From: Methanobacteriota archaeon
GTDB lineage: Archaea > Thermoplasmatota > Poseidoniia > Poseidoniales > Thalassarchaeaceae
Assembly: GCA_028355015.1 (NCBI GenBank)
Contig: JAOMRN010000001.1
Coordinates: forward strand, 1,229-65,228
Reading direction: 5' to 3'
DNA: 64,000 bases
Shown here: one piece after another, positions 3,178 to 38,519 of the stretch
How the letters are laid out: every line of letters begins with the position of its first letter
How positions within the stretch are numbered: position 1 is the stretch's first letter
The notes under the pieces: generated by a model
Seen by the model: only the letters and a program-made list of their open reading frames with translations
Told to the model about the DNA's origin: nothing
Databases searched by the model: none
Program-made: the position numbers and the translations under genes

Positions 3178-3257
3178 TTTAAGTATCCGAAGTGCTGAAA
3201 TGCAGCCTCTGATTCGCAGGTACATCGAATATACGGGTCAACTCCGTTTTTCGATAG

Positions 3258-6067: not shown

Positions 6068-6079
6068 TTAGGAATTAAT

Positions 6080-6985
6080 ATGGATGATTTAACTCCCCGA
6101 CTTCTTGTCGATTTACTTAGAGACCATATTGTTCCCGACAAATCATTGGGTCAACATTTTCTTTTAGATACGAAGATAATCTCTCGCTCTATTGAAATTT
6201 GTAGTGAAGAGGGGTTCCCAATTAATTCGAAATCTAAAGTTCTTGAGATAGGGCCAGGCCCCGGTTCATTGACATTATATCTTTTGAGAAATGAAGCCTA
6301 TGTTTTTGGCATAGAAATTGACGAGGAAGCGATTCTTCATTTAGATAGAGTATTTGGAGATGCTAATGGCCAACTAGAAATTATTTCTGGAGACGCTCTT
6401 AGGCTAAATTGGCCTTTGGGTTTGACACATATAGTAGCAAATTTACCTTACCAAATTTCAAGCCCAGTCTTAGATAAAATTCAACAATATCATTTTAAAA
6501 ACCCTCTAAATGTCATCGTATTACTTGTCCAAGATGAATTTGCAGAAAGAATGTCCATGGAACATTATGGATCTCTAAGCCCTCTAGGTTTATCCCTATG
6601 GCTCGATTTTGACGTTAAATTAGATAAAAAAGTACCTGGCGGTGCTTTCAGTCCTGCTCCTCGTGTTAATTCTAGAATTGTATCTCTGGTGCCAGTAGAT
6701 CGTTCTCAGGAGAATGGAGAGATTTCTCGTAAGATGTTTAAGATAATAACTCAACATTGTTTTTCAAGCCGTCGGAAAAAAATTAGAACATTATTATCCC
6801 AAGTCCCTCGAAGAATTAGTCGAATAAAAGGATGGCATAAATCACGTTGGAAGGCAGCTGTGGAAGATTTATTGTTAAATCCACCAGATACATTTTCTAA
6901 TGAATGGTTTGAAAACAGACCAGACATGCTAGAACCTGAAGAATGGGCAATAATTGCTAATAGAATATCTTCATTTAATGAATAA
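6080..6985 (+). CDS. rsmA: 16S rRNA (adenine1518/1519-N6)-dimethyltransferase KsgA/Dim1
   Basis: Motifs LGQHFL, SAM-binding VLEIGPGPGSLT and catalytic ANLPYQISSP. Confidence 0.9.
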   Translation: MDDLTPRLLVDLLRDHIVPDKSLGQHFLLDTKIISRSIEICSEEGFPINSKSKVLEIGPGPGSLTLYLLRNEAYVFGIEIDEEAILHLDRVFGDANGQLEIISGDALRLNWPLGLTHIVANLPYQISSPVLDKIQQYHFKNPLNVIVLLVQDEFAERMSMEHYGSLSPLGLSLWLDFDVKLDKKVPGGAFSPAPRVNSRIVSLVPVDRSQENGEISRKMFKIITQHCFSSRRKKIRTLLSQVPRRISRIKGWHKSRWKAAVEDLLLNPPDTFSNEWFENRPDMLEPEEWAIIANRISSFNE

Positions 6986-7077
6986 ATAAGATAATTATGA
7001 CCGCGACTTGATATTATACGCATGGTTCCGCGGGACTACTGCGCAGCGGACATACATTCGCGCAAGGGGGCACTAAT

Positions 7078-8172
7078 ATGGCAAAGAAGGACACCTATCT
7101 CGCATTATTACGCCGTGGGATAGATGAAAAAACTGCTCAAATCCTGTCAGATGGTGGAATTAAAGTTGGTGATTTGAAAAATCTTGATGTCGAGACGTTA
7201 ACTAATAATTATGGTCTTAAGAAAGAAATAGCAACCTCTGTATTAGACGCGGTTAAATCAGGCCCTCGCTCTTCATCTAAGCAAAGATATCTTGCAGATG
7301 TTCTTTCGGATACCGGTGGGGTGAAGAAAGTTGACAAGATTGAAGAGCAGAGATTCAAGAGAGAACAGAAAGATTTGCATTCAGAACTTCTGGAGAAGAA
7401 AGAACAGTTACGAATTGCTAGAGTAGAGCAGTTTCGTGAAAAGAAATTAGTAATGAATAGATTAGGTAAGACTGTTGAACTCATAGTTAAATTAGAAAAT
7501 ACTTTTGATGAAGAGGGTAAAGATGAACAGCGCACTAAACTCAGAGATCAACTAGAGACTAGAGGACTTGAAGCCGCTAGAGATCATGAATTATTGGACT
7601 TATCAGGTACTCCTCAAGATATAGTTGATTTCCGTCGCAAGATCGCTCCAATATTATGTATGCACGCATGTCCAGACTGTGGAGAAGAAATGGACCCTCG
7701 AGGAGGAAATGTCATGGAAGATATGACAGACTTTGTTTTGATTTGTTGGGATTGTGAGAAAGAGTTCCGGGCACCTATGGCAGAAGTTGTAGAAAATAAA
7801 TTAGAAAATGGTGATAGGTTAACAATCGATCCTCAGAGAGGGCCAAGATTAGAAGTAATTCAACCTCCTAAGAAGTCTGAATCACTGAGTGTTGATGACT
7901 TAATTAAAAGAGATCTAAAGAAGACAGGAGCATCTTTCGCAGAAGTTGAAGCAGCGGTTGAAGCGAGTAAGTTGTCTGGTGGATTAATGAGTATTGAAGA
8001 TTGGATTGAACAGAAAATCGAAGATAAAGGATATATCCAAGCTCAAGAACATAGAGAAGAATTCATTCTTGCTACTGGTGCAGGGGCTACTAAATTTAAC
8101 AAATGGATGAAGAAAGCGGGACTGTATTTCAATAAACAAACAGGACGTTGGACTCGTTGGGAAGACCGTTGA
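7078..8172 (+). CDS. Hypothetical protein: N-terminal HhH-like domain, coiled coil, central zinc ribbon
   Basis: The N-terminus GIDEKTAQILSDGGIKVGDLKNLDVETLTNNYGLKKEIATSVLDAV looks helix-hairpin-helix-like. It is followed by a K/E-rich coiled-coil stretch and CPDCGEEM...CWDCEKEF. No family recognised. Confidence 0.6.
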   Translation: MAKKDTYLALLRRGIDEKTAQILSDGGIKVGDLKNLDVETLTNNYGLKKEIATSVLDAVKSGPRSSSKQRYLADVLSDTGGVKKVDKIEEQRFKREQKDLHSELLEKKEQLRIARVEQFREKKLVMNRLGKTVELIVKLENTFDEEGKDEQRTKLRDQLETRGLEAARDHELLDLSGTPQDIVDFRRKIAPILCMHACPDCGEEMDPRGGNVMEDMTDFVLICWDCEKEFRAPMAEVVENKLENGDRLTIDPQRGPRLEVIQPPKKSESLSVDDLIKRDLKKTGASFAEVEAAVEASKLSGGLMSIEDWIEQKIEDKGYIQAQEHREEFILATGAGATKFNKWMKKAGLYFNKQTGRWTRWEDR

Positions 8173-9036: not shown

Positions 9037-10293
9037 TTAATTCCAATCTGTAAATAATGGAAAAGAATTTCCCATTGTGAGGCATTCCATGCCATCCTCA
9101 GTTCTTACAAAAGTGTCTTCAGTTCCTATGCAACCATCTGGATATATTACTTTAGGTTCTATTGCCATCGTTCCGCCAATACATAATGGACGATTAAATC
9201 CATTTGCAATAACTGGAGTTTCATCTAATTCTAATCCCACTGAATGCCCTAAAAAATGAGATTTATCGGGATTCATTCCCATGAGATTATCTGAATAGCC
9301 CATTTCTTTTGCCATGAAACTTCCAATTTCCCACGCTTTAGAACAATTATCTCCTCGAGAAAGGCTTGAAACTACTGCTTTTTGGATTTCGGCCATATGG
9401 TCGAGTCTTTCCATCCATCTACTATCTAGAGCTCCTGCACTGAACATACGTGTACAATCAGAAACATACCCGCGATGTAGATGCACGATATCTACAGTAA
9501 CTGGAGAATTAGATTTGACTTTGGCGTGCCCTGATCCTAAAGGCGAGATTGGACTCGCTCCAACTCCTCCAATTGCAGAATCAAAATATGAGGGTATAGA
9601 TGCAGACTCACCAGCAACAATAACAACTCTGTCACAATCCATCGGCCATTTCCTCATCCTTATTCTTCCACCGAAGCCAGCCTTTCTACTAACATTATCA
9701 GCAACGGCAGCCATTTCTAACTCCGTTTTCCCCAATCCTCCTTTTTCTTTGATTGATTCGAACATTTCTTTGTTAATACGTCCACTCTCTCGAAGCATAT
9801 CGATCTCCCAATTTGACTTCATTTCTCTCAAGCCATACATTATTGATGTACAATCTTTTGATTCACCAACTAGTGATTTCATTTTACTGGATATGAATTT
9901 CCAGCGATCATGAGGTATTTTCCCTCCTAATATTGCAGGCTTTTGGACCCCGCCTATTTCACGAATAGAATTTGCTAAATCTGCCATTCTTGGTTGAGCA
10001 ATAACTGGGTCAGGACAATCATCTCCTCCAGATTCAAATTTAGCTCTTTCAAGTGACCTCTTCACCCAATGAGTCGTTTGAACATCAGAATCTTTCCCAC
10101 CTATTAGAATAATCCCGTTTTGCCTTCCACCTGTTAGCCAATATAATTCCACAGGATCGTCGATAAGAGCGGATTCAATCCCACTTTCAGATAGAGCGAC
10201 TGATAACCTTGCTCTACGATTTTCTAATTCTTGTACAGGGACTCTCCAATCGGCGCCTTCAGGGCCGACCAATCCTCTCATATCCCATGCCAT
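9037..10293 (-). CDS. M24-family metallopeptidase (Xaa-Pro aminopeptidase/creatinase-like)
   Basis: C-terminal pita-bread motifs HFLGHSVGLELDETPVI and GGTMAIEPKVIYPDGCIGTEDTFVRTEDG, with an N-terminal creatinase-like domain. Confidence 0.8.
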   Translation of the reverse strand: MAWDMRGLVGPEGADWRVPVQELENRRARLSVALSESGIESALIDDPVELYWLTGGRQNGIILIGGKDSDVQTTHWVKRSLERAKFESGGDDCPDPVIAQPRMADLANSIREIGGVQKPAILGGKIPHDRWKFISSKMKSLVGESKDCTSIMYGLREMKSNWEIDMLRESGRINKEMFESIKEKGGLGKTELEMAAVADNVSRKAGFGGRIRMRKWPMDCDRVVIVAGESASIPSYFDSAIGGVGASPISPLGSGHAKVKSNSPVTVDIVHLHRGYVSDCTRMFSAGALDSRWMERLDHMAEIQKAVVSSLSRGDNCSKAWEIGSFMAKEMGYSDNLMGMNPDKSHFLGHSVGLELDETPVIANGFNRPLCIGGTMAIEPKVIYPDGCIGTEDTFVRTEDGMECLTMGNSFPLFTDWN

Positions 10294-10380
10294 GCATTGT
10301 GCGTGGGAGTGTCAATCACAAAGGTATTGGTGAAGGTATGTAAGGACAATTCAACCATTACGGTCAAAGAGTCCTAGCCT

Positions 10381-11658
10381 GTGGGCATGAACGTGAGTGG
10401 CGTCCTTACGCTGGACGATGTCGGTCTTGGCGGCAAAGTAGTTCTATATCGTGTAGACGTAAATTCTCCACTAGAACCATCAACAGGTGCCTTCCTTGAC
10501 GATAGTAGATTAAGAGCTATTTTGCCTACCCTTAGATCATTACAAAATTCTAAGGTTGTTATGATTGGCCATCAATCAAGACCTGGTAAGAATGATTTCA
10601 CAGATATGTCGCAACATGCAGATCGGATATCTAGATTAATTGGTAAAAAAATTCATTTTGTATCAGATATTTGTGGAGATAAAGCAATTACTGCGATTAA
10701 AAAACTCAAGATAGGTGAGATGTTATTTTTAGATAATATTAGAATGCATGACGATGAGAATTCTATGAAGAAAGCGTCGCCGGAGAAAACAGCTACTTCT
10801 GAAATTGTACAAAAGTTAGCTCCTTTGATTGATGTTTACGTAACAGATGCTTTTGCTGCTGCGCATCGAAATTCTCCCTCACTTACCGGTTTTTCAGAAG
10901 TCGTTCCTTGTATCGCTGGAAGATTAATGGCTAAAGAAATAGATAATCTACAAATCGCAGTAAATGATCCTCCTCGGCCATATATTGCCATATTAGGTGG
11001 TACGAAGTGTGATGATTCATTACGTGTAGCTAAGAATTTAATCGATAAGGAGATAATTGACTCAATTCCTGTTGTCGGTGTTGTTGGTAATATGATGTTG
11101 TGGGCCAGTGGAATAGATATTGGTGAGGGAAATAAATCATTTATCCGAAATACATTAGGCGTTGCCTTCGAAGAAACATGGGAAATGGCCGTTTATCTTC
11201 ATGATAATCACTCAGAATATTTCCTCTTACCTGCTGACGTAGCTGTAGAATTAAATGGCGATAGAGTTGCTATGATGGTAGATGATTTACCTACGGGCAA
11301 TCCAATATACGATATAGGAATCCAAACATTACAAGAAATCAGCCCTCTATTGATTAATGCTGGGTGTATTCTCTGGAATGGGCCAGCATCTTACTTCGAA
11401 TTACCCGGATTTGCCTTTGGAACAATTGAGATTCTAAATATGTGTATCGAATCATCGGCTGTTACCATTGTAGGTGGAGGTCATACCAGTTCATTAGTTA
11501 GTAATAGGGGCGCAGTAGATCAAGTAACTCACAACAGTACTGGTGGAGGTGCCTGCCTTACTATGCTTTCAGGAGGGTTCATGCCGGTCATAGATTCCTT
11601 AAATCGTTCAAATACTAAATTCCGTCCAATTTTAGATGCTTTAGGTATTAAAAAATAG
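10381..11658 (+). CDS. pgk: Phosphoglycerate kinase (archaeal type)
   Basis: Motifs GHQSRPG, FLDNIRMHDDE, TDAFAAAHR and NSTGGGA. The listed start is GTG. Confidence 0.9.
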   Translation: MGMNVSGVLTLDDVGLGGKVVLYRVDVNSPLEPSTGAFLDDSRLRAILPTLRSLQNSKVVMIGHQSRPGKNDFTDMSQHADRISRLIGKKIHFVSDICGDKAITAIKKLKIGEMLFLDNIRMHDDENSMKKASPEKTATSEIVQKLAPLIDVYVTDAFAAAHRNSPSLTGFSEVVPCIAGRLMAKEIDNLQIAVNDPPRPYIAILGGTKCDDSLRVAKNLIDKEIIDSIPVVGVVGNMMLWASGIDIGEGNKSFIRNTLGVAFEETWEMAVYLHDNHSEYFLLPADVAVELNGDRVAMMVDDLPTGNPIYDIGIQTLQEISPLLINAGCILWNGPASYFELPGFAFGTIEILNMCIESSAVTIVGGGHTSSLVSNRGAVDQVTHNSTGGGACLTMLSGGFMPVIDSLNRSNTKFRPILDALGIKK

Positions 11659-25255: not shown

Positions 25256-26053
25256 ATGTCTGAGATAAAATTCCGTAAAAGCGATAAAAAAATGACCACA
25301 TTTGAGGTAATGAAACAAACATTTACGTTTGTTTCTGTAATCTGTATTTTTGATTTTATGTTCTATATGATGTATCTTCAAGAAGGTACAATAGCTAGTC
25401 TAATTCCTATGATTGTTTGCGGTTTACCACTGAGCTTGATTCTTCTTCTTCTCCTAATACAATCTATGAAGCATTTCCTCGGTTTCGGTCACATGGTTAT
25501 TACAAGTGATAATGAAATGGTGCTCAGGACCTCAAGTTCAGGTCGGGAAAAAACTAGTAGATTCTCATCTCTTAGTAAGATGATAACAAATCCAATGGCT
25601 AAAATGATGATGAGAGAAGCAGATAAAGATGGTGATGGACAAATATCTTTCGATGAATATATCGATATGGCCTTCGATGATTTAAGCATAAACGAGAAAC
25701 CTTGGGAATGGGACTTTAAGATGGCTTATGAAAGAATCTCGAAACAATTTGATTTGCCTTCTGGCGATCTCCCTATATCTTTCGAAGATTTTAGTATCTA
25801 TACTGATTCAGAAGATAGAACTAATTTCGATGAAATAGATATCGATAATGATGGTTTTATTACCAAGGAGCAGTTAATTGATTATTTCTGGGAACAAGGT
25901 AAATCTGAATTTACTGAGCTTAGGATAGAATTCGATAAATATGACGTAGATGGAAATGGTTACCTATCTTTAGAAGAATTGAGTACACTAATTTCATCTG
26001 GTCATCACGAAAATTGGGCAGAAGAAAAGACCAATAATTGGTGGTCTGAATAG
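25256..26053 (+). CDS. Membrane-anchored EF-hand calcium-binding protein
   Basis: Two N-terminal TM helices, then three canonical EF-hand loops: DKDGDGQISFDEY, DIDNDGFITKEQL and DVDGNGYLSLEEL. Confidence 0.75.
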   Translation: MSEIKFRKSDKKMTTFEVMKQTFTFVSVICIFDFMFYMMYLQEGTIASLIPMIVCGLPLSLILLLLLIQSMKHFLGFGHMVITSDNEMVLRTSSSGREKTSRFSSLSKMITNPMAKMMMREADKDGDGQISFDEYIDMAFDDLSINEKPWEWDFKMAYERISKQFDLPSGDLPISFEDFSIYTDSEDRTNFDEIDIDNDGFITKEQLIDYFWEQGKSEFTELRIEFDKYDVDGNGYLSLEELSTLISSGHHENWAEEKTNNWWSE

Positions 26054-29287: not shown

Positions 29288-29391
29288 CCGCGCTTAGCTC
29301 AGTTGGCTAGAGCACCTGACTGTAGACTGGAAACACATGGTTGTAGGCAGCCATCAGGGGGTCCCCGGTTCAAGTCCGGGAGCGCGGACCA
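29288..29391 (+). tRNA. tRNA-Tyr (anticodon GTA) with a 27-nt intron at the canonical 37/38 position; CCA encoded
   Basis: Hand-folded cloverleaf. Acceptor CCGCGCT/AGCGCGG (C1-G72, A73, as required of archaeal tRNA-Tyr). D arm GCTC-AGTTGGCTA-GAGC. Anticodon stem CCTGA/TCAGG with loop CTGTAG|A interrupted by 29326..29352. Variable loop GGGTC. T arm CCCGG-TTCAAGT-CCGGG. The mature length would be 77 nt including CCA. Confidence 0.85.
29366..29391 (+). repeat. 26-nt direct repeat, copy 1 (3' end of tRNA-Tyr; att-like)
   Basis: CGGTTCAAGTCCGGGAGCGCGGACCA is identical to 33565..33590. Confidence 0.9.
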
Positions 29392-29413: not shown

Positions 29414-30535
29414 TTAAGATGTAATTTGCACCACACATTTACCTTTAGCACGACCAGAAAAAGAGCGATTGAACGCTCCTTGCCATCCTTCTTCGGTATC
29501 TTCTGAATTGAAGTTCCAAATACCGTCGAGCACCGGCTTAATTTCTCCACTTTCTAGATACCCTGCAAGTGTCGAGAGATCTTCATGACTTGGTGAAAGG
29601 AAAAGATACTCCCAGTTTGCACCCACAGACCTAGCAGATTTGAACTCCTTCCTCTTTTCTTTCCTCTTCAAGAAAAGCTTGAGTATCCAAGCAGTCCCAC
29701 CTATCCGACGTATTTCTTCAAGGGTTGGCATACCCGCAATGGTAACGATTTTTCCTCCCTCTTTGACAATCTTAGACATCTCATGACTTTCGGCTGTTGT
29801 ATCGAAACACACATCAAATTTTTCATCATTGCTCCCTCCATACACTTCATCGAATCGAGTGTTTTTGTAATTAATTACTACATCTGCTCCGAGACTTTTA
29901 CACAGATTTTCTTTCTCTCCCTTTGATGCGGTAGTGACAACAAGACCTGCTTTAAACACGTTCTTTGCTAATTGAATAGCAATTGTACCAACTCCTCCGG
30001 CTCCACCTGATATGAAGATTCGGTCACCTTCTTTGAGTCCAGAAGATTTGAGGGCCTGGAGCGCAGTCATACCAACGAGAGGAATCGATGCGGCTTCCTC
30101 AAATGTTAGATTATCAGGCTTCATCACAACATTGGCTGTATCTGCAACACAGTACTCTGCCATTGCACCTCTATACCATGGTGTTTTCTTTCCATCATTT
30201 TCGTTTCCAAAAAGACGAGCAAATACAGGTTGACCAACAGAGAATTTTCCTTCAAGGTCTGCTTCTTCAACAACTCCTGCAATATCGTAACAAATGATAT
30301 GAGGGAAGGATGCAACGGGTCGAACCATCTTCAAATCGCCCGATAGTAGTGCTTTGTCAACTGGATTGATGGAAGATGCGTGAACTTTGATTACGATATT
30401 GTTTGAGGCATCAAAACCATGAGGGTAAGCCACACTTGTTTTTTTCAATTGGGAAGGTTTACCATATTTTGAGAAACCGATTATGTTCATTGTTTTGCCA
30501 CTTGGATGTGCATTCATAATCACGGGAACGTACAT
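29414..30535 (-). CDS. Zinc-type alcohol dehydrogenase-like / quinone oxidoreductase (MDR superfamily)
   Basis: Nucleotide-binding GDRIFISGGAGGVGTIAIQLAK, with an overall GroES-like plus Rossmann layout. The real start may be the internal MNIIGF. Confidence 0.8.
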   Translation of the reverse strand: MYVPVIMNAHPSGKTMNIIGFSKYGKPSQLKKTSVAYPHGFDASNNIVIKVHASSINPVDKALLSGDLKMVRPVASFPHIICYDIAGVVEEADLEGKFSVGQPVFARLFGNENDGKKTPWYRGAMAEYCVADTANVVMKPDNLTFEEAASIPLVGMTALQALKSSGLKEGDRIFISGGAGGVGTIAIQLAKNVFKAGLVVTTASKGEKENLCKSLGADVVINYKNTRFDEVYGGSNDEKFDVCFDTTAESHEMSKIVKEGGKIVTIAGMPTLEEIRRIGGTAWILKLFLKRKEKRKEFKSARSVGANWEYLFLSPSHEDLSTLAGYLESGEIKPVLDGIWNFNSEDTEEGWQGAFNRSFSGRAKGKCVVQITS

Positions 30536-30606
30536 CTGTAAATAAATAAAAAAGTGTCAATAGTGTCCTTTTGTAACAATGTTGTAACCTGTATCCTAAT
30601 AACAAA

Positions 30607-30984
30607 ATGATACTTAGCCACCTTATGTCTCAGATACAATCACAGCGTATGCAATCAATGTGTGAATCAGCTCGAAGTCATGTTGACGACCTATTGGTTT
30701 TACTATCAAAATCGAAAATGCTCAGCATTCTTTACGTAATGAATTGTGATCCCTCTCCAATGCGTTTCTCTGAAATCAAGAAGAGAGTTGACTCATCCTC
30801 AACAACAGTTGCAAGACGATTGGCAGAACTTGAAGACAATGGGCTAGTCACCCGTACTGCCTATGCAACCGTCCCAGCTACAGTCGAATATGCACTAACC
30901 GAAGATGCGATTTCACTTCAGCCCAGTCTTGAATCGATGTTTGAATGGGTGCTCAATCGAGCAGATAATTTTGCCGAAAAATAA
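30607..30984 (+). CDS. HxlR-family winged-helix transcriptional regulator
   Basis: LLSKSKMLSILYVM...MRFSEIKKRVDSSSTTVARRLAELEDNGLVTRTAYATVPATVEYALTE is the typical HxlR wHTH. It is divergent from an oxidoreductase gene, the usual HxlR context. Confidence 0.8.
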   Translation: MILSHLMSQIQSQRMQSMCESARSHVDDLLVLLSKSKMLSILYVMNCDPSPMRFSEIKKRVDSSSTTVARRLAELEDNGLVTRTAYATVPATVEYALTEDAISLQPSLESMFEWVLNRADNFAEK

Positions 30985-31146
30985 ACACATACCACGAAAC
31001 TAGTTATTTCCATGAAATTGTAATATTTTTCTAGAATGTGTCTTTATGATAAAATTTTGATGGTTACGGGCATGTTACTAGGACAGTAACGAGTCTGTTA
31101 CTATCAAAACGGTTCTTTATATGTAGTAAGTAGATGGAATTAGTAT

Positions 31147-33432
31147 ATGTCTCGGTTGAGAGTACTATTAATCTGCTTAATGATGATGGCCATTCCTGCA
31201 TCCCAGGTATCTGCTGATGTTGATGAAACGAATTCAAGTCCAGAGGTAACTATTGGGTTTGGCAATGTTACCAATGACACCATGGTATTCACCATGGATA
31301 CCTCTGTAGATGTGTATGTATACCAAGTAACATTGGCTTGGGAGAATGGTGCTGTTTATTGTGGCATCTCAGCATCCGGTGGACTCTCTGAAGAATATAA
31401 CTTGTATGTCAGCGTCCTTTATGCTGGGTGTTTGACAACAGGATACTATTATGGCGCTCAGGGAGGTGCCTGGATCCCCTCAGGTAGTAATGATACTCTC
31501 ACATCTATTTTGTATCAATCCAACAGCCCTGAGGTATGCATCGGGAATGCGACCTATACAGTCATGTTACCCGATGGGGAGTTCGAAACTCGACAAGCAG
31601 ACTTTGATCCCAATGATTGTCTGAGTTATACTATGTATGAAAGAGAATGGCCGTATGATCTATGGTATGTACTTGATGAAGACGGCAATGATGAAGGCGA
31701 CAATGAATCTGAGGCAGAGGAAATTATTGATGACAGTCTTTATCAGTTCAATGAAGATTTGACTGTATTAGAAAATTTGGAAAGTTTTGATGATTTTTCC
31801 ACTCTCATAGAGGCACTCAACATAACAGGATTAACTGATAATTTCAGTTCAAATAATACACCTCAGATGGGGTGGTCAATCTTTGCCCCCACTAATGATG
31901 CTTTTGCTTCTGCAGGCATAGATTTAGATGATTTTGATAGTTCAGAAGAAATAGAATTTTTGACTGAAATCTTACTCTATCATGTTACTTTCGCAGGACC
32001 ATATGCTATGAACTCAAGTATGGCCTACAACAGCTCGAGCGGCGAGTATGAGCCATACTGCCAGCCTTACACTGCTGACTGGATGCCGATGCTAAATGGA
32101 GAATATGCTGATCCATTCGATTACAGCTCTTGGACTGAGACTGTAACAATTTCGAATGACTGCCAGGGAAATCTTACAGTCAACCAGGCCTATATCATTG
32201 ATGCAGATAATCGAGTCTATGGTTATGAATACAACGGGGTCGATGGCTACCCTTTCAACAATCAACTTCCACATGGCTGGGAAATTGCTGAGGATAATGG
32301 GATGATTCAGGTAATCGATCAAGTTCTATTTCCGGCAAGCTTCAATTCTACACCACCGAATAATGATCAGCCAAGATTCAATCCTAGATTTGATATTCCG
32401 TCCAACCTAGAGAATGATGGAGAGTTTGGAGACTTAATGGATGCATTGGGAATGACTATGTTGATGGACGACATTACTATCGAGAATAGCCCTCAGATGG
32501 GAATGACGATATTCGCTCCAACAGATGAGGCATTTGCTGCGGCTGGAATTAATCTTGACGATTATGATAGTCTCCAGAAACTCGAAGGTTTGTCTGAAAT
32601 CCTTCTTAATCATATCTCATTTGACTGGGTATTATCATTCCCTGATGAATGTACGCCCACAGAGTTTGACATGGAAACTACAGATTCATTTTCGGTAACC
32701 ATTTCAAATGATTGTGAAGGTAATATCTTCGTCAATGAAGCAAAAGTTCTCTATTCCCAAGGAGTAGAAAATGGGGTTATTATCGTCATCGATCAAATAC
32801 TGATGCCGATAGAAGAAGAACCTGTAGAGGAGCCTGTCGAAGAACCTGTAGAGGAGCCTGTCGAAGAACCTGTAGAGGAGCCTGTCGAAGAACCAGTAGA
32901 GGAGCCTGTGGAAGAACCAGTAGATACAACCATAGAAACTCCAGTCGATGATATTCCTTTGCAGGATGATGATTCCAAAGTTGATGGCAGCGGACCTTCA
33001 GTTATTTTAGGTCAAAGCAGTACATTCTTTGGAGCGATGATATTGTTCACCATGGTATTGGTTCTAGTCGGTACAGCTGCGGTAAGATCTCCCAAGTCAC
33101 GATTAGATTCCGTAATAATGGAAAATGAAGTTGAAGCAGATGAATTATTGTCACTTCTTTCTAGATCAAAAATGGTTCAAATTATTCATGCATTGCATTC
33201 AGAAGAAAATCCAATTAGATTTACAGAATTAAAAAATAGAGTTGATACCTCCTCTACCACACTAACAAGAAGATTGGGCGAATTAGAGGACCATAATTTA
33301 GTAGAAAGAATTGATTATGAGACCGTTCCTCCCACTGTTGTGTATAAATTGACTGATTCCGGAACATCTCTTCTTCCTAGTTTAGAGACATTTTTTGAAT
33401 GGGTTCTAAATGATACAAATGAAACTGAGTAA
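31147..33432 (+). CDS. Membrane-spanning fusion: signal peptide, two fasciclin (FAS1) domains, (EEPV)9 linker, TM helix, cytoplasmic HxlR-type wHTH
   Basis: Signal MSRLRVLLICLMMMAIPASQVSA. FAS1 blocks WSIFAPTNDAFASAG...LLYHV...GMIQVIDQVLFP and MTIFAPTDEAFAAAG...LLNHI...GVIIVIDQILMP. TM FFGAMILFTMVLVLVGTAAV followed by basic RSPKSR. The C-terminal 110 aa are colinear with the stand-alone HxlR at 30607..30984. Confidence 0.8.
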   Translation: MSRLRVLLICLMMMAIPASQVSADVDETNSSPEVTIGFGNVTNDTMVFTMDTSVDVYVYQVTLAWENGAVYCGISASGGLSEEYNLYVSVLYAGCLTTGYYYGAQGGAWIPSGSNDTLTSILYQSNSPEVCIGNATYTVMLPDGEFETRQADFDPNDCLSYTMYEREWPYDLWYVLDEDGNDEGDNESEAEEIIDDSLYQFNEDLTVLENLESFDDFSTLIEALNITGLTDNFSSNNTPQMGWSIFAPTNDAFASAGIDLDDFDSSEEIEFLTEILLYHVTFAGPYAMNSSMAYNSSSGEYEPYCQPYTADWMPMLNGEYADPFDYSSWTETVTISNDCQGNLTVNQAYIIDADNRVYGYEYNGVDGYPFNNQLPHGWEIAEDNGMIQVIDQVLFPASFNSTPPNNDQPRFNPRFDIPSNLENDGEFGDLMDALGMTMLMDDITIENSPQMGMTIFAPTDEAFAAAGINLDDYDSLQKLEGLSEILLNHISFDWVLSFPDECTPTEFDMETTDSFSVTISNDCEGNIFVNEAKVLYSQGVENGVIIVIDQILMPIEEEPVEEPVEEPVEEPVEEPVEEPVEEPVEEPVEEPVDTTIETPVDDIPLQDDDSKVDGSGPSVILGQSSTFFGAMILFTMVLVLVGTAAVRSPKSRLDSVIMENEVEADELLSLLSRSKMVQIIHALHSEENPIRFTELKNRVDTSSTTLTRRLGELEDHNLVERIDYETVPPTVVYKLTDSGTSLLPSLETFFEWVLNDTNETE
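32815..32922 (+). repeat. In-frame tandem repeat, 9 x 12 nt (24-nt super-period), encoding (EEPV)9
   Basis: gaRgaRccWgtN repeats nine times, alternating cctgtagaggag/cctgtcgaagaa. It lies inside the 761-aa ORF, just outside the TM helix. Confidence 0.95.
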
Positions 33433-33564: not shown

Positions 33565-33590
33565 CGGTTCAAGTCCGGGAGCGCGGACCA
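33565..33590 (+). repeat. 26-nt direct repeat, copy 2 (orphan tRNA-Tyr 3'-end fragment; att-like)
   Basis: Identical to 29366..29391. The upstream sequence does not supply a matching 5' acceptor strand, so this is a fragment and not a second tRNA. Confidence 0.9.
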
Positions 33591-33872: not shown

Positions 33873-34058
33873 ATGACCGAAAACACGTGTGAGCATGAGT
33901 GGGATAAGAGCGAAGATATAGATCAATTTCTTGACCTGGTAGACTTGAACCCGCAGTTTGTACAAATCAAAGTTAGGTGCTGCAAGTGCGGGAAAACGGG
34001 ATTGACTGACGCTGATACGACTTGGAAGCCAGTATATTGGGATTTTATTGACCCATGA
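33873..34058 (+). CDS. Hypothetical small Cys-rich (zinc-ribbon-like) protein
   Basis: 61 aa with CEHEW ... CCKCG; located in the island. Confidence 0.4.
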   Translation: MTENTCEHEWDKSEDIDQFLDLVDLNPQFVQIKVRCCKCGKTGLTDADTTWKPVYWDFIDP

Positions 34059-34120
34059 GACCGTACAAATGCGAAAGGATTAACAATAATTATTTATATG
34101 AACATACAGAGATGAATTAG

Positions 34121-34489
34121 ATGAATGAAGATTTACAAAAAGAATTGATTTGGGCATTTGGTACATTAGTCGTTTTCATCATCTTTTTATTATTAGGAGG
34201 CATAAATGAAGTCAGTGGAATAGCAATTTCAGTAGGTGCTTTTCTATTAAGTTGGTCTGTAATGAGTTTTTCCCTCAAGAAATACGCCCCTAATAATGAC
34301 TCAGGGAAAGAACTAGAAAACGAAATGAAATGGTTTGCTGCTATCTTGATATTATTTCTTACTATAATGACTATCATCGGGAAAACTGATAGTGAGTTAG
34401 AATTATCATATTCATTATACGCCATTTTAGTATTTGGCTATACTTTGATTTGGATTATTCGCAGTTCTGCTATCAAATATTTCAATTAA
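34121..34489 (+). CDS. Hypothetical four-helix membrane protein
   Basis: 122 aa with four clear hydrophobic segments. It is more protein-like than the overlapping minus-strand ORF 34117..34425. Confidence 0.5.
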   Translation: MNEDLQKELIWAFGTLVVFIIFLLLGGINEVSGIAISVGAFLLSWSVMSFSLKKYAPNNDSGKELENEMKWFAAILILFLTIMTIIGKTDSELELSYSLYAILVFGYTLIWIIRSSAIKYFN

Positions 34490-34502
34490 TTATTGGAGCA
34501 AT

Positions 34503-34606
34503 GGGTAGGCATTGAAAGGGCCCATAGATAGCCGATAAGTTCACTCAAAACATATCAATGGGCTCAAGTAGAAACCCATTGATTCGTCTGTTAATCGATT
34601 ATGCTA
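34503..34606. repeat. Island intergenic repeat, copy R1 (104 nt)
   Basis: It aligns without gaps to 35627..35730, with 73 of 104 identical by hand count. Shared blocks are TGAAAGGGCCCA and the perfect palindrome TAATCGATTA (34592..34601). It also contains the hairpin CAATGGG-n12-CCCATTG. Confidence 0.75.
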
Positions 34607-34651
34607 AGCACAGTTTTTCGAATTTGCGGTTAGATACAATGTTAGTAAAAA

Positions 34652-35542
34652 TCATTTTTCGAACCACCAATCTCCTTCATTATTAGATGGGTAGTTACTG
34701 GGTAAGTTTTTCCAACTCTTATATCCGACTAGGTATACTTTCATTTCCGTCTCCACTCTGGTTATCCCACTCTCATCAAAGACCATACCATATATTGTTG
34801 AGGATTTCATATGACCAGTTTTTCCAAAGGTGCTCTCAGGATTTGCCCTAGCATATTCTCTTGCTTGATGTTCCTTAATTCCTTTATCGAGACAATAATT
34901 GACATAGATTTCTAATCGTTCTGCTTCATCAATATAACTAATATAACCATGCAAACGCCCATCTACGATTTCAGCTTGAAAAATATTTTCAACAGGCTTC
35001 TTATCTATTTTGATGTGGTTATATTTTGGGTCAATAGACATTATTTTCTGATTATAGGAAATAATATGCTCAATCTCGAATAATTCAGGTAAAATCGATT
35101 TCAATGATTCTTTCCAATTCGGAGTGAATCTTTTCATGAAGTTTGGATATGAATCATAATCACCAATTTCATAATCAACCGTTTTAATTATTGTTTGATT
35201 ATTTTCCTTTATTTCCATCAATCTGTAGCTATTACCATCAGGATTTACAGGTTTATATGTCGTATAGAATAAATCACTAATTGGTATTTTTCTATATTTA
35301 ATATTGATTTTTTTCGTGAATTCTTGTCCAAAAATTATGTGATCTGAGGAATCAATTCGAATTATATATTTTCTATGGAATAAGAATAGACTCATTGGGA
35401 AAGCCCCTAAGAAAATAGCAATAACAATACCAAATGTTAAATCATCAGGAATTACGTATAGTCCGATGAATATGAAGAAACCAAAAACAATAGGTAAACC
35501 CTGATAATCGAATACTGGGAATATGATTTTCTTCTCCTCCAT
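34652..35542 (-). CDS. Hypothetical protein, two N-terminal TM helices plus a soluble domain of about 230 aa
   Basis: 296-aa ORF. TM helices LPIVFGFFIFIGLYVI and FGIVIAIFLGAFPMSLFLF. No recognisable motifs. Repeats R1 and R2 flank it. Confidence 0.6.
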   Translation of the reverse strand: MEEKKIIFPVFDYQGLPIVFGFFIFIGLYVIPDDLTFGIVIAIFLGAFPMSLFLFHRKYIIRIDSSDHIIFGQEFTKKINIKYRKIPISDLFYTTYKPVNPDGNSYRLMEIKENNQTIIKTVDYEIGDYDSYPNFMKRFTPNWKESLKSILPELFEIEHIISYNQKIMSIDPKYNHIKIDKKPVENIFQAEIVDGRLHGYISYIDEAERLEIYVNYCLDKGIKEHQAREYARANPESTFGKTGHMKSSTIYGMVFDESGITRVETEMKVYLVGYKSWKNLPSNYPSNNEGDWWFEK

Positions 35543-35626
35543 ATTACTACCTAAACTTTCGACATATGATAGACCTTTAGGTCTGTTCCCCGATAATTAG
35601 AGGAGGGATACCGCCTAACATCGGAT

Positions 35627-35730
35627 GGTTAGGCTCTGAAAGGGCCCACTGAAAGCCCAATAATTCGCCGATTGCAATCGGATGGGTCTAAGCAGAAACC
35701 CTCAGATTTGTCTATTAATCGATTATACTA
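35627..35730. repeat. Island intergenic repeat, copy R2 (104 nt)
   Basis: Homologous to R1. It contains TAATCGATTA at 35716..35725 and the palindrome CCGATTGCAATCGG. The hairpin GCCTAAC-n8-GTTAGGC (35613..35634) overlaps its 5' end. Confidence 0.75.
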
Positions 35731-35780
35731 TGCTCTGATTCTCTAATTGAACGCCAGCCTATGAAAGAGAATACAGATTA

Positions 35781-35825
35781 CCTAATAATTCTTCAATTAC
35801 TATCGGATGGGGCTAAGTAGTAACC
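35781..35825. repeat. Island intergenic repeat, partial copy R3 (45 nt)
   Basis: cctaataattcttcaattactatcggatggggctaagtagtaacc aligns to the middle of R2 (cccaataattcgccgattgcaatcggatgggtctaagcagaaacc) at about 80% identity. Confidence 0.65.
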
Positions 35826-35949
35826 GTATAATTACTAACAACAAATACCTTATTTTAGCGGACCATAATTTTACAACGTTACTACTATTTTAATCTATTT
35901 GAGCACTGAGCCCAAAACTATATGCCGCTTGAAAACTAAGTATATAGTT

Positions 35950-37089
35950 ATGAGTGAGTTGAAAAATCGCGATAAAGAAAAACAAGAAAATGAAACTGTA
36001 TCAGTCTGGTTTAGAGCACAGAATGCTTTGAAAAATGAAGGTAATTTTAGCCGGATTCCGGGAACTCCTTCATATTCTGAATCTAGAAATAAAATATATG
36101 GAAGAAGAAGTGCGAGAACAATATTTAACAATCTTAGAACTGATAAAAAACTTTACAGGAATCATATTTTATCATATAGTGTCCATGGTCGAGAACATGA
36201 TTTATTGAGTGAGAGTGCAATAAATGACGAAGTTGATTCACGAACTGATATCCTTTTTCTTAGAATGAGGACTCCTGGACTTGATGAAATCTGCTGGAAC
36301 TGGAGTCAGGAGCTGCTATCGCATAGAGATTATCTACGATCAGCCGGTATTGATTTACCAATCGAAAATGATAATAGGAAAATCACACAAATTGAAATGA
36401 TTATAAGAAGTGGTTACTTACATAAAATATGGCATAATTCATTGTATGCTATGAGTGAACTAGGAATGGAAATTCCAAACTGGTGTAAAATTCTTCCTTA
36501 CAATCCATTAGTAAATGCATTTCATGGCACAAACCGAGATGATCAAGACATAGGTGAAAGATTATTATCAATTTTAGAAGAAAAATATCCAGAGTTACAT
36601 GCTGAATTAATCGCATCAAATCCGTTCCGTTCACCAAGAATTGGTTTTCAAAATGGGAAAGGAAATGTAGGGGGAACTAAGTGGCCCTCTATTTCTGATA
36701 TTATTTCAAGATTAGAATCAGGAGAATCTGTCGATCAGGATTGGGAAAATAAATTTCTAGAAGAACTGATTTATGATTATGATGAAGAAGAAGATGACTT
36801 CCCATATGAAAGCACAGAGGATCTTTATCGTTCATTGAAAGTCACTAACCTGAGAAGATGGGCAGATGCTGATGAGATAACTGGTGCTTGGTCTATGAAT
36901 CGTGAGAAATTAATTTCGGCTTGGGCTACTAGAACTGAAAAGATGGAGAGTGCTTATAGAAGACAAGGGGGGGCATACCCTAGAGTACCAAGGCTAACCG
37001 ATTGGACTATTTTTATTATGGAGAATGTAAATTTTTTCAAATTAGATGATGAGTTAATTTTAAGCCCGAAGATGCAAAGGAGTGAATAA
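35950..37089 (+). CDS. Hypothetical protein (about 379 aa from the first ATG; the ORF opens at TTG 35899)
   Basis: Long ORF in the island with an acidic patch YDYDEEEDDFPYE. No Walker, HUH or nuclease motif recognised. Its stop overlaps the next gene. Confidence 0.6.
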   Translation: MSELKNRDKEKQENETVSVWFRAQNALKNEGNFSRIPGTPSYSESRNKIYGRRSARTIFNNLRTDKKLYRNHILSYSVHGREHDLLSESAINDEVDSRTDILFLRMRTPGLDEICWNWSQELLSHRDYLRSAGIDLPIENDNRKITQIEMIIRSGYLHKIWHNSLYAMSELGMEIPNWCKILPYNPLVNAFHGTNRDDQDIGERLLSILEEKYPELHAELIASNPFRSPRIGFQNGKGNVGGTKWPSISDIISRLESGESVDQDWENKFLEELIYDYDEEEDDFPYESTEDLYRSLKVTNLRRWADADEITGAWSMNREKLISAWATRTEKMESAYRRQGGAYPRVPRLTDWTIFIMENVNFFKLDDELILSPKMQRSE

Positions 37090-37090
37090 T

Positions 37091-37591
37091 ATGAAATGTG
37101 ACGATTGCAAAGTAGATTTAATCTCAACAGATATGATTGCGGAAACTACCACTTACTATGAAGGCTACTTACGCTCAAGATTGCTTATACCTAATGAACT
37201 ACTTAATGAGGAGTTAAAAGAGTTAGGAAAACTAGAAGCAGAACTAATTTGGTCTGAATATAATAGCTCTCGGAGTAGATATATGGAGCATTTGGATGGA
37301 GGGTCATGGGATGGACGACCTGAATACCTCGATTTGATAAATCAAATCAAAGATATACATGTAGACATTATTGCTAAGGTATGCCCTAAATGCGGCAAAG
37401 TAAAGATCGTAGCCGATTTAATGAGTAGGAAAAAAATATTCACTAGTTTGGAAAAAATGGTAAAAACCCTCGTAATGAAACGTAAAAAATTAAACAAAGC
37501 CGAAGAGTTCGAAAAGAAGGAAAAAGCAAAAAAAGATAGGGAAATTGCTAAACTAAAAAAACAGATTGAGAAATTGGGCGGTGACTCATAG
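37091..37591 (+). CDS. Hypothetical split zinc-ribbon protein with Lys-rich coiled-coil tail
   Basis: CDDC at the N-terminus and CPKCG about 95 aa later. C-terminal tail KRKKLNKAEEFEKKEKAKKDREIAKLKKQIEKL. GGAG-like motif upstream of ATG 37091; GTG 37082 is an alternative start. Likely translationally coupled to the upstream gene. Confidence 0.55.
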   Translation: MKCDDCKVDLISTDMIAETTTYYEGYLRSRLLIPNELLNEELKELGKLEAELIWSEYNSSRSRYMEHLDGGSWDGRPEYLDLINQIKDIHVDIIAKVCPKCGKVKIVADLMSRKKIFTSLEKMVKTLVMKRKKLNKAEEFEKKEKAKKDREIAKLKKQIEKLGGDS

Positions 37592-37641
37592 GCCGGCGTT
37601 CCTTTCAACCAATCGCATGGGCACCCCATCCATCCGTATAC

Positions 37642-37654
37642 GAAGCAAAGGGTA
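37642..37654. repeat. Left arm of a 13-bp inverted repeat flanking the R-M/recombinase cassette
   Basis: GAAGCAAAGGGTA here; its reverse complement TACCCTTTGCTTC is at 40906..40918. Both lie in intergenic DNA rich in ACCCTA/TAGGGT motifs. Confidence 0.6.
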
Positions 37655-37681
37655 CCCTATGGTATGATATGCACCATAGGG
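37655..37681. repeat. Perfect hairpin / palindromic site (9-bp stem, 9-nt loop)
   Basis: CCCTATGGT-atgatatgc-ACCATAGGG lies immediately after the left IR arm, 64 nt downstream of the 37591 stop. It may be a terminator or a recombinase site. Confidence 0.8.
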
Positions 37682-37727
37682 GTATCATAGGGATAACCAT
37701 AAGTATCAATAGCAAGACCATATATTT

Positions 37728-38519
37728 GTGGAACTTGAACAAATTATGAATCGTCTTGCAGAGCAGGTAGCAATCGTAGACAGAAATATTACACCTACTC
37801 AAAACTATTATATTCCTTCAATAGGAACTTCTAGTGAGCCTACAATTGTACATAGACTAGTAGAAGAATGGGTAAAAAAACATCCTGATGAGTTACCAGG
37901 TATTATGCTAAATAAAAGAGGAAAGGGAACAGAAGGTTGTTTTGAAATAAAATATCCAGGTGCCAAAGGTTCTGAAAAGAAATTGGATTTTGGTTTTTCA
38001 AGTTCAACAGGACATGAAAATTCTGATAATTTAGATAACTTAGAATGGGCAATCGAATTTAAAAAAATCAATTGGATTGGTGGGACAGGAACTGACCAAT
38101 CAGAAAGAGCAGTAGGTAAACTATGCTCTCCTTATCCGGCTACAGGACCAATCTTATCCGATGCCTTAAGGGTCATAAAACATAGTCATGGAACACGTCA
38201 TGCAGTGATTTTAATAAGTCCAGATGTCCATTCTGATCAATTAGAATTATGTAAAAATCATCCAGATAGAGAACGTAGATGGAAACCTGAAAATCCAAAT
38301 GATAGAATTATAGCACTAACTAATTCTTTCAAGAAAAATAATGGTTATGCATTTGAAGCAGAACCTCTGTTACCATTTGTTGAGAAAATATTTGAGTATA
38401 AGGAAATTAACTTCAATGAACGTATTATTAAGAAAATTACTGGATTAACAAACCACCCCGTTTATTCAAGATTGACACTTGTTGGTTGGGAAATTAAAAA
38501 AGAATCTATAGCAGATTGA
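37728..38519 (+). CDS. Putative type II restriction endonuclease (PD-(D/E)xK-like)
   Basis: Candidate catalytic pattern KKLDFGF ... (23 aa) ... LEWAIEFKK (D ... E-x-K). It is convergent with, and overlaps by 58 nt, a C5-cytosine methyltransferase gene. Start is GTG 37728 or ATG 37746. Confidence 0.55.
   Translation: MELEQIMNRLAEQVAIVDRNITPTQNYYIPSIGTSSEPTIVHRLVEEWVKKHPDELPGIMLNKRGKGTEGCFEIKYPGAKGSEKKLDFGFSSSTGHENSDNLDNLEWAIEFKKINWIGGTGTDQSERAVGKLCSPYPATGPILSDALRVIKHSHGTRHAVILISPDVHSDQLELCKNHPDRERRWKPENPNDRIIALTNSFKKNNGYAFEAEPLLPFVEKIFEYKEINFNERIIKKITGLTNHPVYSRLTLVGWEIKKESIAD

Follow-up and report, generated by a model that had tools for sequence, protein, structure and literature searches.

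The stretch of DNA considered here, referred to throughout as the window, is 64,000 nucleotides from a Thalassarchaeaceae archaeon (Poseidoniales; GenBank assembly GCA_028355015.1, contig JAOMRN010000001.1, positions 1,229 to 65,228), and it carries a gene whose product joins an exported ectodomain with fasciclin (FAS1) domains, through a single transmembrane (TM) helix, to a winged-helix DNA-binding domain of the HxlR family. The fusion gene lies next to a gene for a soluble HxlR regulator to which its tail is closely related, and the two genes, with the parts of the fusion, are placed in the window as follows (aa, amino acids; ORF, open reading frame; TRF, Tandem Repeats Finder; AF2, AlphaFold2 model).

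30607..30984, forward strand: soluble 2-Cys HxlR/DUF24 regulator, 125 aa (Pfam HxlR, E=3e-15, 56.2 bits)
31147..33432, forward strand: fusion gene, a membrane-tethered HxlR, encoding a 761-aa type-I membrane protein (ORF listing, Pfam, hydropathy, cluster search)
31147..31218, forward strand: signal peptide, aa 1-24, MSRLRVLLICLMMMAIPASQVSA followed by D (hydropathy and reading of the n-, h- and c-regions)
31243..31677, forward strand: N-module, conserved all-beta ectodomain and candidate sensor, aa 33-177 (conservation, AF2)
31762..32340, forward strand: FAS1 domain a, aa ~206-398, with insertions (second Pfam Fasciclin stretch; internal repeat alignment)
32404..32814, forward strand: FAS1 domain b, aa ~420-556 (best Pfam Fasciclin stretch, residues 427-554)
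32814..32924, forward strand: acidic stalk of nine EEPV units (TRF, 12-bp tandem repeat, 9.2 copies)
33019..33084, forward strand: single TM helix, aa 625-646, ending in a near-invariant L-x-G-T and then RSPKSR (hydropathy, alignments, AF2)
33136..33414, forward strand: cytoplasmic Cys-less HxlR winged helix, aa 664-756, recognition helix VDTSSTTLTRRLGELE (Pfam, PDB sequence matches, AF2)

The fusion ORF is a single uninterrupted frame in the ORF listing, separated from the upstream HxlR ORF by a gap of 162 bp, and it reads from the N to the C terminus as signal peptide, all-beta N-module, two FAS1 domains, nine EEPV units, one TM helix and an HxlR winged helix. Most of this order had been proposed in an earlier description of the same DNA made without database searches (hereafter the sequence-only reading), and that description has held up well: the 761-aa frame is continuous and its coordinates exact, a hydropathy scan finds the signal peptide and the single TM helix with its basic residues, Pfam detects the two FAS1 domains and HxlR above its cutoffs, the nine-fold EEPV spacer is recovered by TRF, and the tail is collinear with the stand-alone HxlR.

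The protein has exactly two hydrophobic segments in a Kyte-Doolittle scan, residues 4-25, which resemble a signal peptide and end in PASQVSA/DV, and residues ~625-646, which reach the scan's TM-helix maximum of 2.38 and where AF2 places a helix at 626-644. Between them lies a strongly acidic ectodomain that holds all of the cysteines and 12 of the 14 N-x-S/T sequons, while the C-terminal 111 residues contain no Cys. The ectodomain, large, acidic and rich in Cys and in sequons, is thus exported by a Sec signal peptide, and because basic residues follow the single TM helix, the positive-inside rule puts the winged helix-turn-helix in the cytoplasm, as a surface-to-DNA architecture of the kind proposed earlier would have it. 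Two other accounts of the C-terminal region were considered and set aside. No PGF-CTERM sorting signal is found in the full-length fusion (NCBIfam, E<=0.1), and sorting by an archaeosortase was rejected on that ground and because the translation has no PGF motif and 115 residues follow the TM helix; an internal start that would yield a soluble tail is unsupported, the Met positions after the TM helix not being conserved in the family alignment.

The Fasciclin family (PF02469) matches the ectodomain in two stretches (E=1.2e-24; 87.3 bits against a cutoff of 22), and the characteristic H1, YH and H2 motifs can be read in both copies of the translation (FAPTNDAF/FAPTDEAF, LLYHV/LLNHI and VIDQVLFP/VIDQILMP); the two copies share 35% identity (E=4e-31). 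Pfam has no match to the N-module, whose AF2 model is a beta-sandwich (predicted local distance difference test, pLDDT, 72; predicted TM-score, pTM, 0.71).

At the other end, residues 679-756 match HxlR (PF01638; E=7e-14; 51.9 bits against a cutoff of 20.8), and in a PDB sequence search the tail, like the soluble neighbour, matches the sequences of the solved proteins HxlR, YodB, HypR, QsrR and YtcD. The sequence-only reading named AlphaFold modelling as a check, and here the outcome is divided. For residues 664-756 the model returns alpha1-alpha4, a wing and alpha5 in the order seen in solved HxlR-family proteins, with moderate confidence (pLDDT 70-83), and it shows a helix at 649-660, between the TM helix and alpha1. 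The full-length model is poor, and it was used solely for the secondary structure of the C-terminal domain, never for packing or for the geometry between the TM helix and alpha1. By profile and by fold, then, the tail is a true HxlR/DUF24 domain, yet it is without the family's sensing Cys: an N-terminal Cys at or near alpha1 (Cys14 in HypR, Cys6 in YodB) is present in the soluble neighbour and missing from the tail.

The comparison between the two neighbours is close. Over 104 collinear residues the tail and the soluble HxlR are 53% identical, with zero gaps (E=3e-34), and the recognition helix of the soluble protein, VDSSSTTVARRLAELE, is near-identical to the tethered form, VDTS(S/A)TTL(S/T)RRLGELE. 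The cysteines behave differently: C19 and C47 of the soluble protein are kept in 23-24 of 24 orthologues and align with cysteines of Bacillus subtilis YdzF (PDB 9wvg), whereas Cys is absent from the tethered HxlR domains (17 of 17 and 30 of 30 sequences). We do not claim C19 as the exact equivalent of HypR Cys14, since the alignment is approximate and limited to the N-terminal segment shared with YdzF. Homology to the soluble protein starts ~5-8 residues past the TM helix, so that hardly anything separates the membrane helix from the helices at the start of the HxlR fold. A survey of 1.84 billion representative proteins gives the soluble Cys-type HxlR as the nearest relative of the tail that has no tether, which points to local duplication followed by fusion. 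This sequence comparison indicates that the tail is a duplicate of the adjacent soluble HxlR in which both thiol-sensor cysteines were lost and the recognition helix stayed almost unchanged. The soluble gene itself probably starts at M7 (30625), giving 119 aa; its orthologues are called at 117 aa by gene callers elsewhere.

A possible witness to this history was seen in passing. Two related loci (L020, 2764-3210, and L036, 256-702) encode a soluble HxlR paralogue of 148 aa that is Cys-less and has a recognition helix of the tethered type, SSATTLSRRL; in a Thalassarchaeaceae genome it stands directly downstream of the soluble 2-Cys HxlR, in the slot held elsewhere by the fusion. It may be an intermediate of duplication and fusion, or may have arisen by secondary loss of the ectodomain.

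An unusual gene fusion in a single contig invites the objection that an assembly error or a frameshift has run two separate genes together across the EEPV repeat, one for a fasciclin surface protein and one for an HxlR protein, and the repeat, a 110-bp tract at the junction, does break some assemblies: in the single-cell genome AG-313-L18, whose FtsZ is 99% identical to that of the window, the fusion gene is broken at the repeat over two contigs (loci L038 and L004), and the one apparent split, in L006, is an N-masked scaffold gap. The family as a whole leaves no room for this explanation. In a search of 5.8 billion protein clusters, of which the 120 best matches were examined, PF02469 occurs together with PF01638 in 96 clusters, and thrombospondin type-3 (TSP3) repeats (PF02412) occur together with PF01638 in a further 10. 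The same single ORF recurs in ~100 independent clusters that come from four independent sources (ENA, JGI, NCBI and Logan assemblies), is intact at 934 aa in a second single-cell genome, AG-319-P11 (L005), and is contiguous on contigs of up to 312 kb; moreover, the TM helix runs on into the tail without a break, and both come after the repeat. Finally, the architecture is unchanged in clades that have no EEPV repeat in the linker, which rules out repeat-mediated misassembly or frameshift fusion. The artefact explanation is thereby effectively refuted, and the fusion is a real, conserved gene family of the Poseidoniales (Marine Group II, MGII). This holds for the family; for the window's single copy, formal exclusion is a matter for read mapping only.

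Whether the two halves are fused or separate in MGII genomes, a question raised in the sequence-only reading, is likewise answered by these sources: across Poseidoniales they form a single gene. A scan of one genome per GTDB species returned 35 loci, essentially all from Poseidoniales (Poseidoniaceae and Thalassarchaeaceae), and the fusion is present in at least 12 Poseidoniales species genomes. Its public names are generic, 'winged helix-turn-helix transcriptional regulator' at NCBI (Poseidonia, Poseidoniaceae) and 'HxlR family regulator / surface protein with fasciclin' at JGI. Three loci with Poseidoniales-type HxlR sequences (L033, L036 and L037; as much as 98% identity with the query tail) are assigned to metagenome-assembled genomes of Chloroflexota, Flavobacteriales and Salipiger, and these are most likely mis-binned archaeal contigs rather than cases of horizontal transfer. 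No other long or TM-bearing HxlR protein was found among the best 150 of 2324 HxlR-type representatives in the survey of 1.84 billion; the longer HxlR matches that might have passed for membrane-anchored forms (P0139, P0145, P0182, P0172, P0173, P0202 and P0241) were rejected, being PAS-2xHxlR or tandem HxlR proteins without a TM helix.

All members of the family share a signal peptide, an N-module of ~145 aa, a variable middle, an acidic stalk, one TM helix and the HxlR domain. The middle may consist of one to three FAS1 domains, of TSP3 repeats or of a duplicated N-module, and it frequently carries an LDLa-like motif ('CMDG…DCPDGTDEY'). Mean pairwise identity is 0.80 for the HxlR domain and 0.79 for the N-module, falling to 0.58 for the TM helix, 0.50-0.60 for FAS1 and 0.39 for the stalk; both ends of the protein are constrained, and the middle is a spacer or adhesion module that can be swapped. 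Family members that are 36-93% identical overall all have the same recognition helix, and in 25 of 30 members the L-x-G-T that closes the TM helix makes up a GxxxG or small-xxx-G motif.

Two clades depart from the pattern of the window in the region outside the membrane. One (P0017, P0040, P0072, P0082, P0098 and others) carries in its acidic stalk a calcium-binding motif like that of LDL-receptor class A (EWECMDGT…DDGKFDCPDGTDEY), and another has ~10 TSP3 repeats in place of the FAS1 domains. The N-module is doubled in some members of the family.

A conserved element that the tail may bind, and the TATA-like box beside it, are placed in the window as follows.

30573..30588, no strand assigned: candidate operator GTAAC-N6-GTAAC, between two divergent TATA-like boxes (exact match; conservation in 21 loci)
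31063..31101, no strand assigned: four GTWAC pentamers, at 31063, 31074, 31086 and 31097, with spacings of 11, 12 and 11 bp, upstream of the fusion core promoter
31116..31122, forward strand: TATA-like box TTTATAT, ~28 nt 5' of the ATG (direct reading; TTTA core conserved in the alignment)

GTAAC-N6-GTAAC has 2 exact matches in the 64 kb, against 0.02 expected, one at 30573-30588 and the other, on the opposite strand, at 31063-31078. The relaxed form GTWAC-N6-GTWAC has 3 matches against 0.06 expected, the third at 31086-31101, and all three lie either in the divergent promoter region of the soluble HxlR and the oxidoreductase gene on its other side (ADH, described below) or just upstream of the TATA-like box of the fusion; the background density of GTWAC is 1.8 per kb. 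Immediately downstream of the pentamer array stands a conserved AAAC-G/TTTA(T/A)A block resembling a TFB recognition element (BRE) and TATA box, ~28 nt from the ATG, a spacing typical of leaderless mRNA, and TTTATAT would act as a promoter element of the fusion.

Conservation sets both sites apart. In the alignment of the ADH/HxlR intergenic region, 44 bp around 30573-30588 (…TTTTGTAACAATGTTGTAACCTGT…) are almost invariant in 21 loci. In front of the fusion, GGTTAC-N6-GTTAC is near-invariant, standing unchanged in 9 of 11 orthologous promoters, the two departures each being one substitution in the first pentamer (GGTTGC in L011, GGTTTC in L003), and in L006 and L007 all four pentamers keep an exact 11-bp phase. 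The element has 39 matches in 350 kb from 40 related loci, 18 of them in the ADH/HxlR intergenic region, 17 upstream of a fusion gene and one at a contig end where the fusion would begin. The element also stays with the fusion where the ADH/HxlR pair is absent (L040, L005 and L023).

Sites of the form GTTACACCA(C/G)TGTTAC also occur outside both promoter classes (L026, 9536-9551; L020, 5467; L027, 4742), that in L026 lying ~50 bp upstream of a gene for a lipoprotein-like secreted protein (9587-10453). The genes at these outlying sites may be further members of the regulon. Locus L026 also encodes a third, more divergent HxlR paralogue (7503-7868, reverse strand).

The remaining features of the locus frame the regulator genes.

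29288..29388, forward strand: intron-containing tRNA gene, probably Tyr (GUA, by eye) (Rfam RF00005, 56.4 bits, E=2.4e-10)
29366..29391, forward strand: left att-like direct repeat CGGTTCAAGTCCGGGAGCGCGGACCA, the T-arm and 3' acceptor of the tRNA (repeat search, two copies 4199 bp apart)
29414..30535, reverse strand: zinc-type oxidoreductase of the medium-chain dehydrogenase/reductase (MDR) class, here ADH, divergent from the soluble HxlR (Pfam ADH_N, ADH_zinc_N, ADH_zinc_N_2)
33565..33590, forward strand: right att-like repeat, a 26-nt copy of the tRNA 3' end (repeat search; also in L001, L005 and L038)

The ADH is closest to PIG3-type NAD(P)H quinone oxidoreductases (NCBIfam TIGR02824, E=2.5e-35, below the family cutoff), and its divergent pairing with HxlR recurs in ~25 loci. 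A Cys-bearing HxlR/DUF24 regulator beside a quinone or nitro-reductase gene is the classic layout of the family, as in QorR-QorA, YodB-AzoR1 and HypR-HypO (PMC3351151). The full order, ADH on the reverse strand followed by HxlR and the fusion on the forward strand, is found in the window and in L002, L003, L010, L011, L017 and L039, where L039 has the TSP3 variant in the same slot. No protease or signalling genes were found near the fusion in the window or in the related loci.

The module of ADH, HxlR and fusion is bracketed by the tRNA gene, which carries a 30-nt insertion in its anticodon loop and was missed by ARAGORN but found by Rfam, and by the copy of the tRNA 3' end, an att-like arrangement with no integrase inside. 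Because the bracketed content differs between close relatives (L001, L005 and L038), this looks like a tRNA-linked site for variable cassettes. As a case in point, L001 (TARA scaffold, 5853-8051; protein P0004, a cluster of 44 sequences) is without the segment at window 29450-31031, that is, the ADH and soluble HxlR, and also without 33136-33419, exactly residues 664-758, an in-frame deletion that leaves ENEVE/TE and a stop; its two promoter-proximal pentamers are degenerate. In the two single-cell genomes, a different cassette stands in place of the ADH and the 5' part of the soluble HxlR gene (L038, 3846-5935; L005, ~2900-3400); it encodes a 153-aa membrane protein and a 234-aa protein and leaves the last 32 codons of the soluble HxlR gene. 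Strict co-loss of the ADH and soluble HxlR with the tethered HxlR, which is true of L001, is contradicted by L038/L004. It follows from these variants that the ectodomain and TM helix can stand alone, and that the HxlR tail is linked to the ADH/HxlR module, though not absolutely.

A variant that lacks precisely the HxlR domain, is common (the 44-sequence cluster) and keeps the whole ectodomain and TM helix might suggest that the protein is primarily an adhesin, FAS1 and TSP3 being established adhesion-type modules, and that the tail is a non-regulatory appendage, perhaps a tether between nucleoid and membrane or a fused remnant of the neighbouring gene. We hold this to be very unlikely, since the tail is as conserved (80%) as the best ectodomain module, its recognition helix is invariant where a vestigial remnant would decay, and the fusion's own promoter carries the matching conserved cis-element.

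The same variants bear on a further explanation, in which the fusion is a membrane decoy or anti-regulator: the tethered Cys-less domain would not regulate by itself but would heterodimerise with the soluble 2-Cys HxlR, or compete with it for the operator, so that the amount or state of the surface protein titrates the soluble regulator towards or away from the membrane. The two are adjacent paralogues with near-identical recognition helices and C-terminal dimerisation helices (...SLE(S/T)(M/F)FEWVLN...), both appear to use one type of operator, and both are lost together in L001. This stands in contrast to the loci in which a fusion keeps an intact HxlR domain and its own pentamers although the neighbouring soluble gene is truncated or missing (L038/L004, L005, L023 and L040), and a decoy that worked purely by protein-protein contact would need no invariant recognition helix, so that titration as the main function is improbable, if less so than the adhesin account.

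Beyond the right att-like repeat, the window between 33.9 and 38.5 kb has a G+C content of 0.335-0.358 (the rest is mostly 0.35-0.43), and Pfam matches none of the six consecutive ORFs at 33873-38519; here may lie a further variable or island-like region. Elsewhere in the window, a 265-aa protein encoded at 25256-26053 (forward strand), three genes upstream of FtsZ, has several EF-hand motifs (Pfam EF-hand_1/_7, E~1e-17), and an EF-hand protein is unusual for an archaeon.

What, then, might the fusion do? The sequence-only reading had proposed a one-component device carrying a surface signal to DNA, and the invariant recognition helix and the cis-element shared by both promoters lend this idea added support, although it stays a matter of reading sequences. 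We judge it somewhat more probable than all else that the fusion is a membrane-tethered one-component regulator specific to Poseidoniales that feeds a surface signal into a small quinone-oxidoreductase/HxlR regulon, and we would put the chance of this at a little better than even. A dimer of the tail would bind GTWAC pentamers phased at 11 bp, its targets being the four pentamers upstream of its own BRE/TATA and the two between the divergent ADH and soluble HxlR genes. Indirect signs of a dimer that binds a specific operator are the conserved GTWAC-N6-GTWAC sites and the GxxxG-type TM motif of 25 of 30 members. In soluble proteins of the HxlR family, the signal is a movement of alpha1/alpha1' at the dimer interface, driven by Cys, which re-spaces the recognition helices by ~4 Å (PMC3351151). 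With the alpha1 segment fused to the TM helix, changes in ectodomain or TM pairing, brought about by a ligand or by contact, would replace the thiol switch. The FAS1, TSP3 and LDLa-like modules suggest adhesion or Ca2+-dependent contact as the cue, and a link to attachment to particles or phytoplankton is speculation. A surface or adhesion cue, read by the fusion, and a cytoplasmic electrophile or redox cue would thus converge on one small regulon.

The element may serve activation or repression. Archaeal activators usually sit upstream of BRE/TATA; within the HxlR family, HypR and HxlR activate their targets, HypR from an operator at -53 to -95 (PMC3351151).

The fusion would act while membrane-bound, on promoters linked to it in cis, as ToxR and CadC do; since its targets lie in cis and its tether is very short, a model without release from the membrane is the simplest. 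Membrane-bound transcription factors usually have as their targets the promoters beside their own genes, and they can bind DNA from the membrane (PMC7888679). The sequence-only reading had mentioned release by proteolysis as a possibility, for which no specific support emerged. In such a scheme the factor would lie dormant and locked in the membrane until the ectodomain was shed and a rhomboid or presenilin-type protease cut within the membrane, freeing a soluble Cys-less HxlR. The type-I orientation suits these proteases, the long unstructured acidic stalk is a possible site for the first cleavage, and a near-invariant, helix-perturbing G-T stands at the cytoplasmic end of the TM helix; proteolysis is also the rule for eukaryotic membrane-bound transcription factors, and activation by proteolysis has been proposed even for CadC (PMC11484849). 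As set against this, the conserved neighbourhood contains no protease gene, the G/T motif is equally well explained as a GxxxG-type dimerisation motif in 25 of 30 members, release is unnecessary for targets in cis, and the tether is so short that alpha1 seems built for coupling to the TM helix. We therefore regard proteolytic release as unlikely, though less so than titration of the soluble regulator.

A fuller version of the tethered-regulator account can be sketched, in which a thiol-switch regulator of Poseidoniales became a transmembrane receptor, the TM helix replacing the Cys helix and the ectodomain being interchangeable (FAS1, TSP3 or LDLa-like), so that contact with surfaces of particles or phytoplankton would switch a local regulon directly from the membrane, without a kinase, a second messenger or a protease, while the soluble paralogue would read electrophile stress at the same operator. 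In this detail the proposal is doubtful, if still one to be entertained ahead of proteolysis.

A number of observations count against regulation from the membrane. The topology comes from hydropathy and the positive-inside rule rather than from a dedicated predictor. The full-length AF2 model has a mean pLDDT of 46 and is silent on coupling between the TM helix and alpha1, and the window's own fusion is without the GxxxG-type motif of its relatives. A Foldseek comparison of the N-module with the PDB gave nothing significant (best E=0.058, query-normalised TM-score, TMq, 0.40; weak matches resembling CBM, cohesin and FnIII), and on account of this no fold family is claimed for the candidate sensor. 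The operator is deduced from conservation and co-occurrence, such that the soluble HxlR alone could bind it and the fusion gene be merely its target. Many genomes have the ADH/HxlR pair without a downstream fusion, and in L038/L004 the ADH and the 5' part of the soluble HxlR are replaced by ~2.1 kb of other DNA and the tethered HxlR is retained. Finally, DNA binding, dimerisation, the signal, and tethered as opposed to proteolytic action are all things that we infer.

Membrane-tethered one-component factors are known; what is new here is the topology, the DNA-binding family, the set of ectodomains and the lineage. The nearest functional likeness is to the ToxR-like receptors of Gammaproteobacteria (ToxR, TcpP, CadC and PsaE), which share with the fusion a single polypeptide with an extracytoplasmic sensor, one TM helix and a cytoplasmic winged helix, and which have targets beside their own genes and bind DNA from the membrane (PMC7888679, PMC6320335, PMC5430869). 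The ToxR type, however, is a type II protein, with its DNA-binding domain in the cytoplasm at the N terminus, its sensor in the periplasm at the C terminus and no signal peptide, whereas the fusion is type I and its order reversed. The DNA-binding domain is of the OmpR/PhoB type there and HxlR/DUF24 here, and the cytoplasmic linker is long there and ~5-8 residues here. The ToxR type is bacterial and the fusion archaeal, so its output must act on promoters of the type served by the TATA-binding protein and transcription factor B (TBP/TFB). Thus the fusion would work like a ToxR-type receptor, yet it fails the defining features of that family and is unrelated to it.

Within the archaea, ArnR and ArnR1 of Sulfolobus acidocaldarius are likewise membrane-anchored factors acting on specific promoter boxes, but ArnR carries its HTH at the N terminus and two TM helices at the C terminus, has its HAMP and sensor domains in the cytoplasm, lacks an ectodomain and is controlled by phosphorylation (PMC6396743); the fusion has no HAMP match, one TM helix and a C-terminal DNA-binding domain, and the two share no domain and belong to different phyla. 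The soluble thiol-switch regulators of the HxlR/DUF24 family (HypR, YodB, CatR, QorR, QsrR, HxlR and YdzF) are small soluble dimers that sense through an N-terminal Cys, in contrast to the fusion, which has no such Cys and whose N-terminal helix is joined to a TM helix and an ectodomain of ~620 aa. It is the soluble neighbour that resembles the QorR-QorA and YodB-AzoR1 pairs, as a Cys-bearing regulator divergent from an oxidoreductase gene (PMC3351151). Notch-type regulators of eukaryotes are, like the fusion, type-I single-pass proteins that have adhesion-type repeats outside the cell, to which the TSP3 and LDLa-like calcium-binding motifs of some family members compare, and an effector of transcription on the inner side; they differ in that there is no homology and no evidence of cleavage in the fusion, whose effector would itself bind DNA sequence-specifically and has no nucleus to reach. 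The sequence-only reading knew of no description of this architecture, and consistent with that, our literature searches found, in the library that could be searched, no paper joining HxlR with fasciclin or Marine Group II with fasciclin, and nothing relevant for HxlR together with membrane-bound.

The MGII or Poseidoniales are among the most abundant archaea of the surface ocean and are uncultured, and to our knowledge almost nothing is known of their means of sensing the environment or of changing from a free-living to an attached state and back. A protein that couples adhesion modules to a DNA-binding domain, a candidate operator and a set of three target genes make a concrete hypothesis that can be tested with recombinant protein and synthetic DNA, without cultivation. 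Very few membrane-bound transcription factors are known in archaea, and the fusion brings to them a second architecture, unrelated to the first. If the coupling proposed here is true, the alpha1-driven allostery of HxlR/MarR-type dimers could be driven by a TM helix rather than by a thiol, which would be relevant to one-component transmembrane signalling and to the engineering of minimal receptors. And if adhesion does lead to the promoter in the way envisioned, no earlier proposal of a transcriptional mechanism for surface sensing would exist for MGII, and the fusion would represent a structurally new way of passing a transmembrane signal to a MarR-type dimer.

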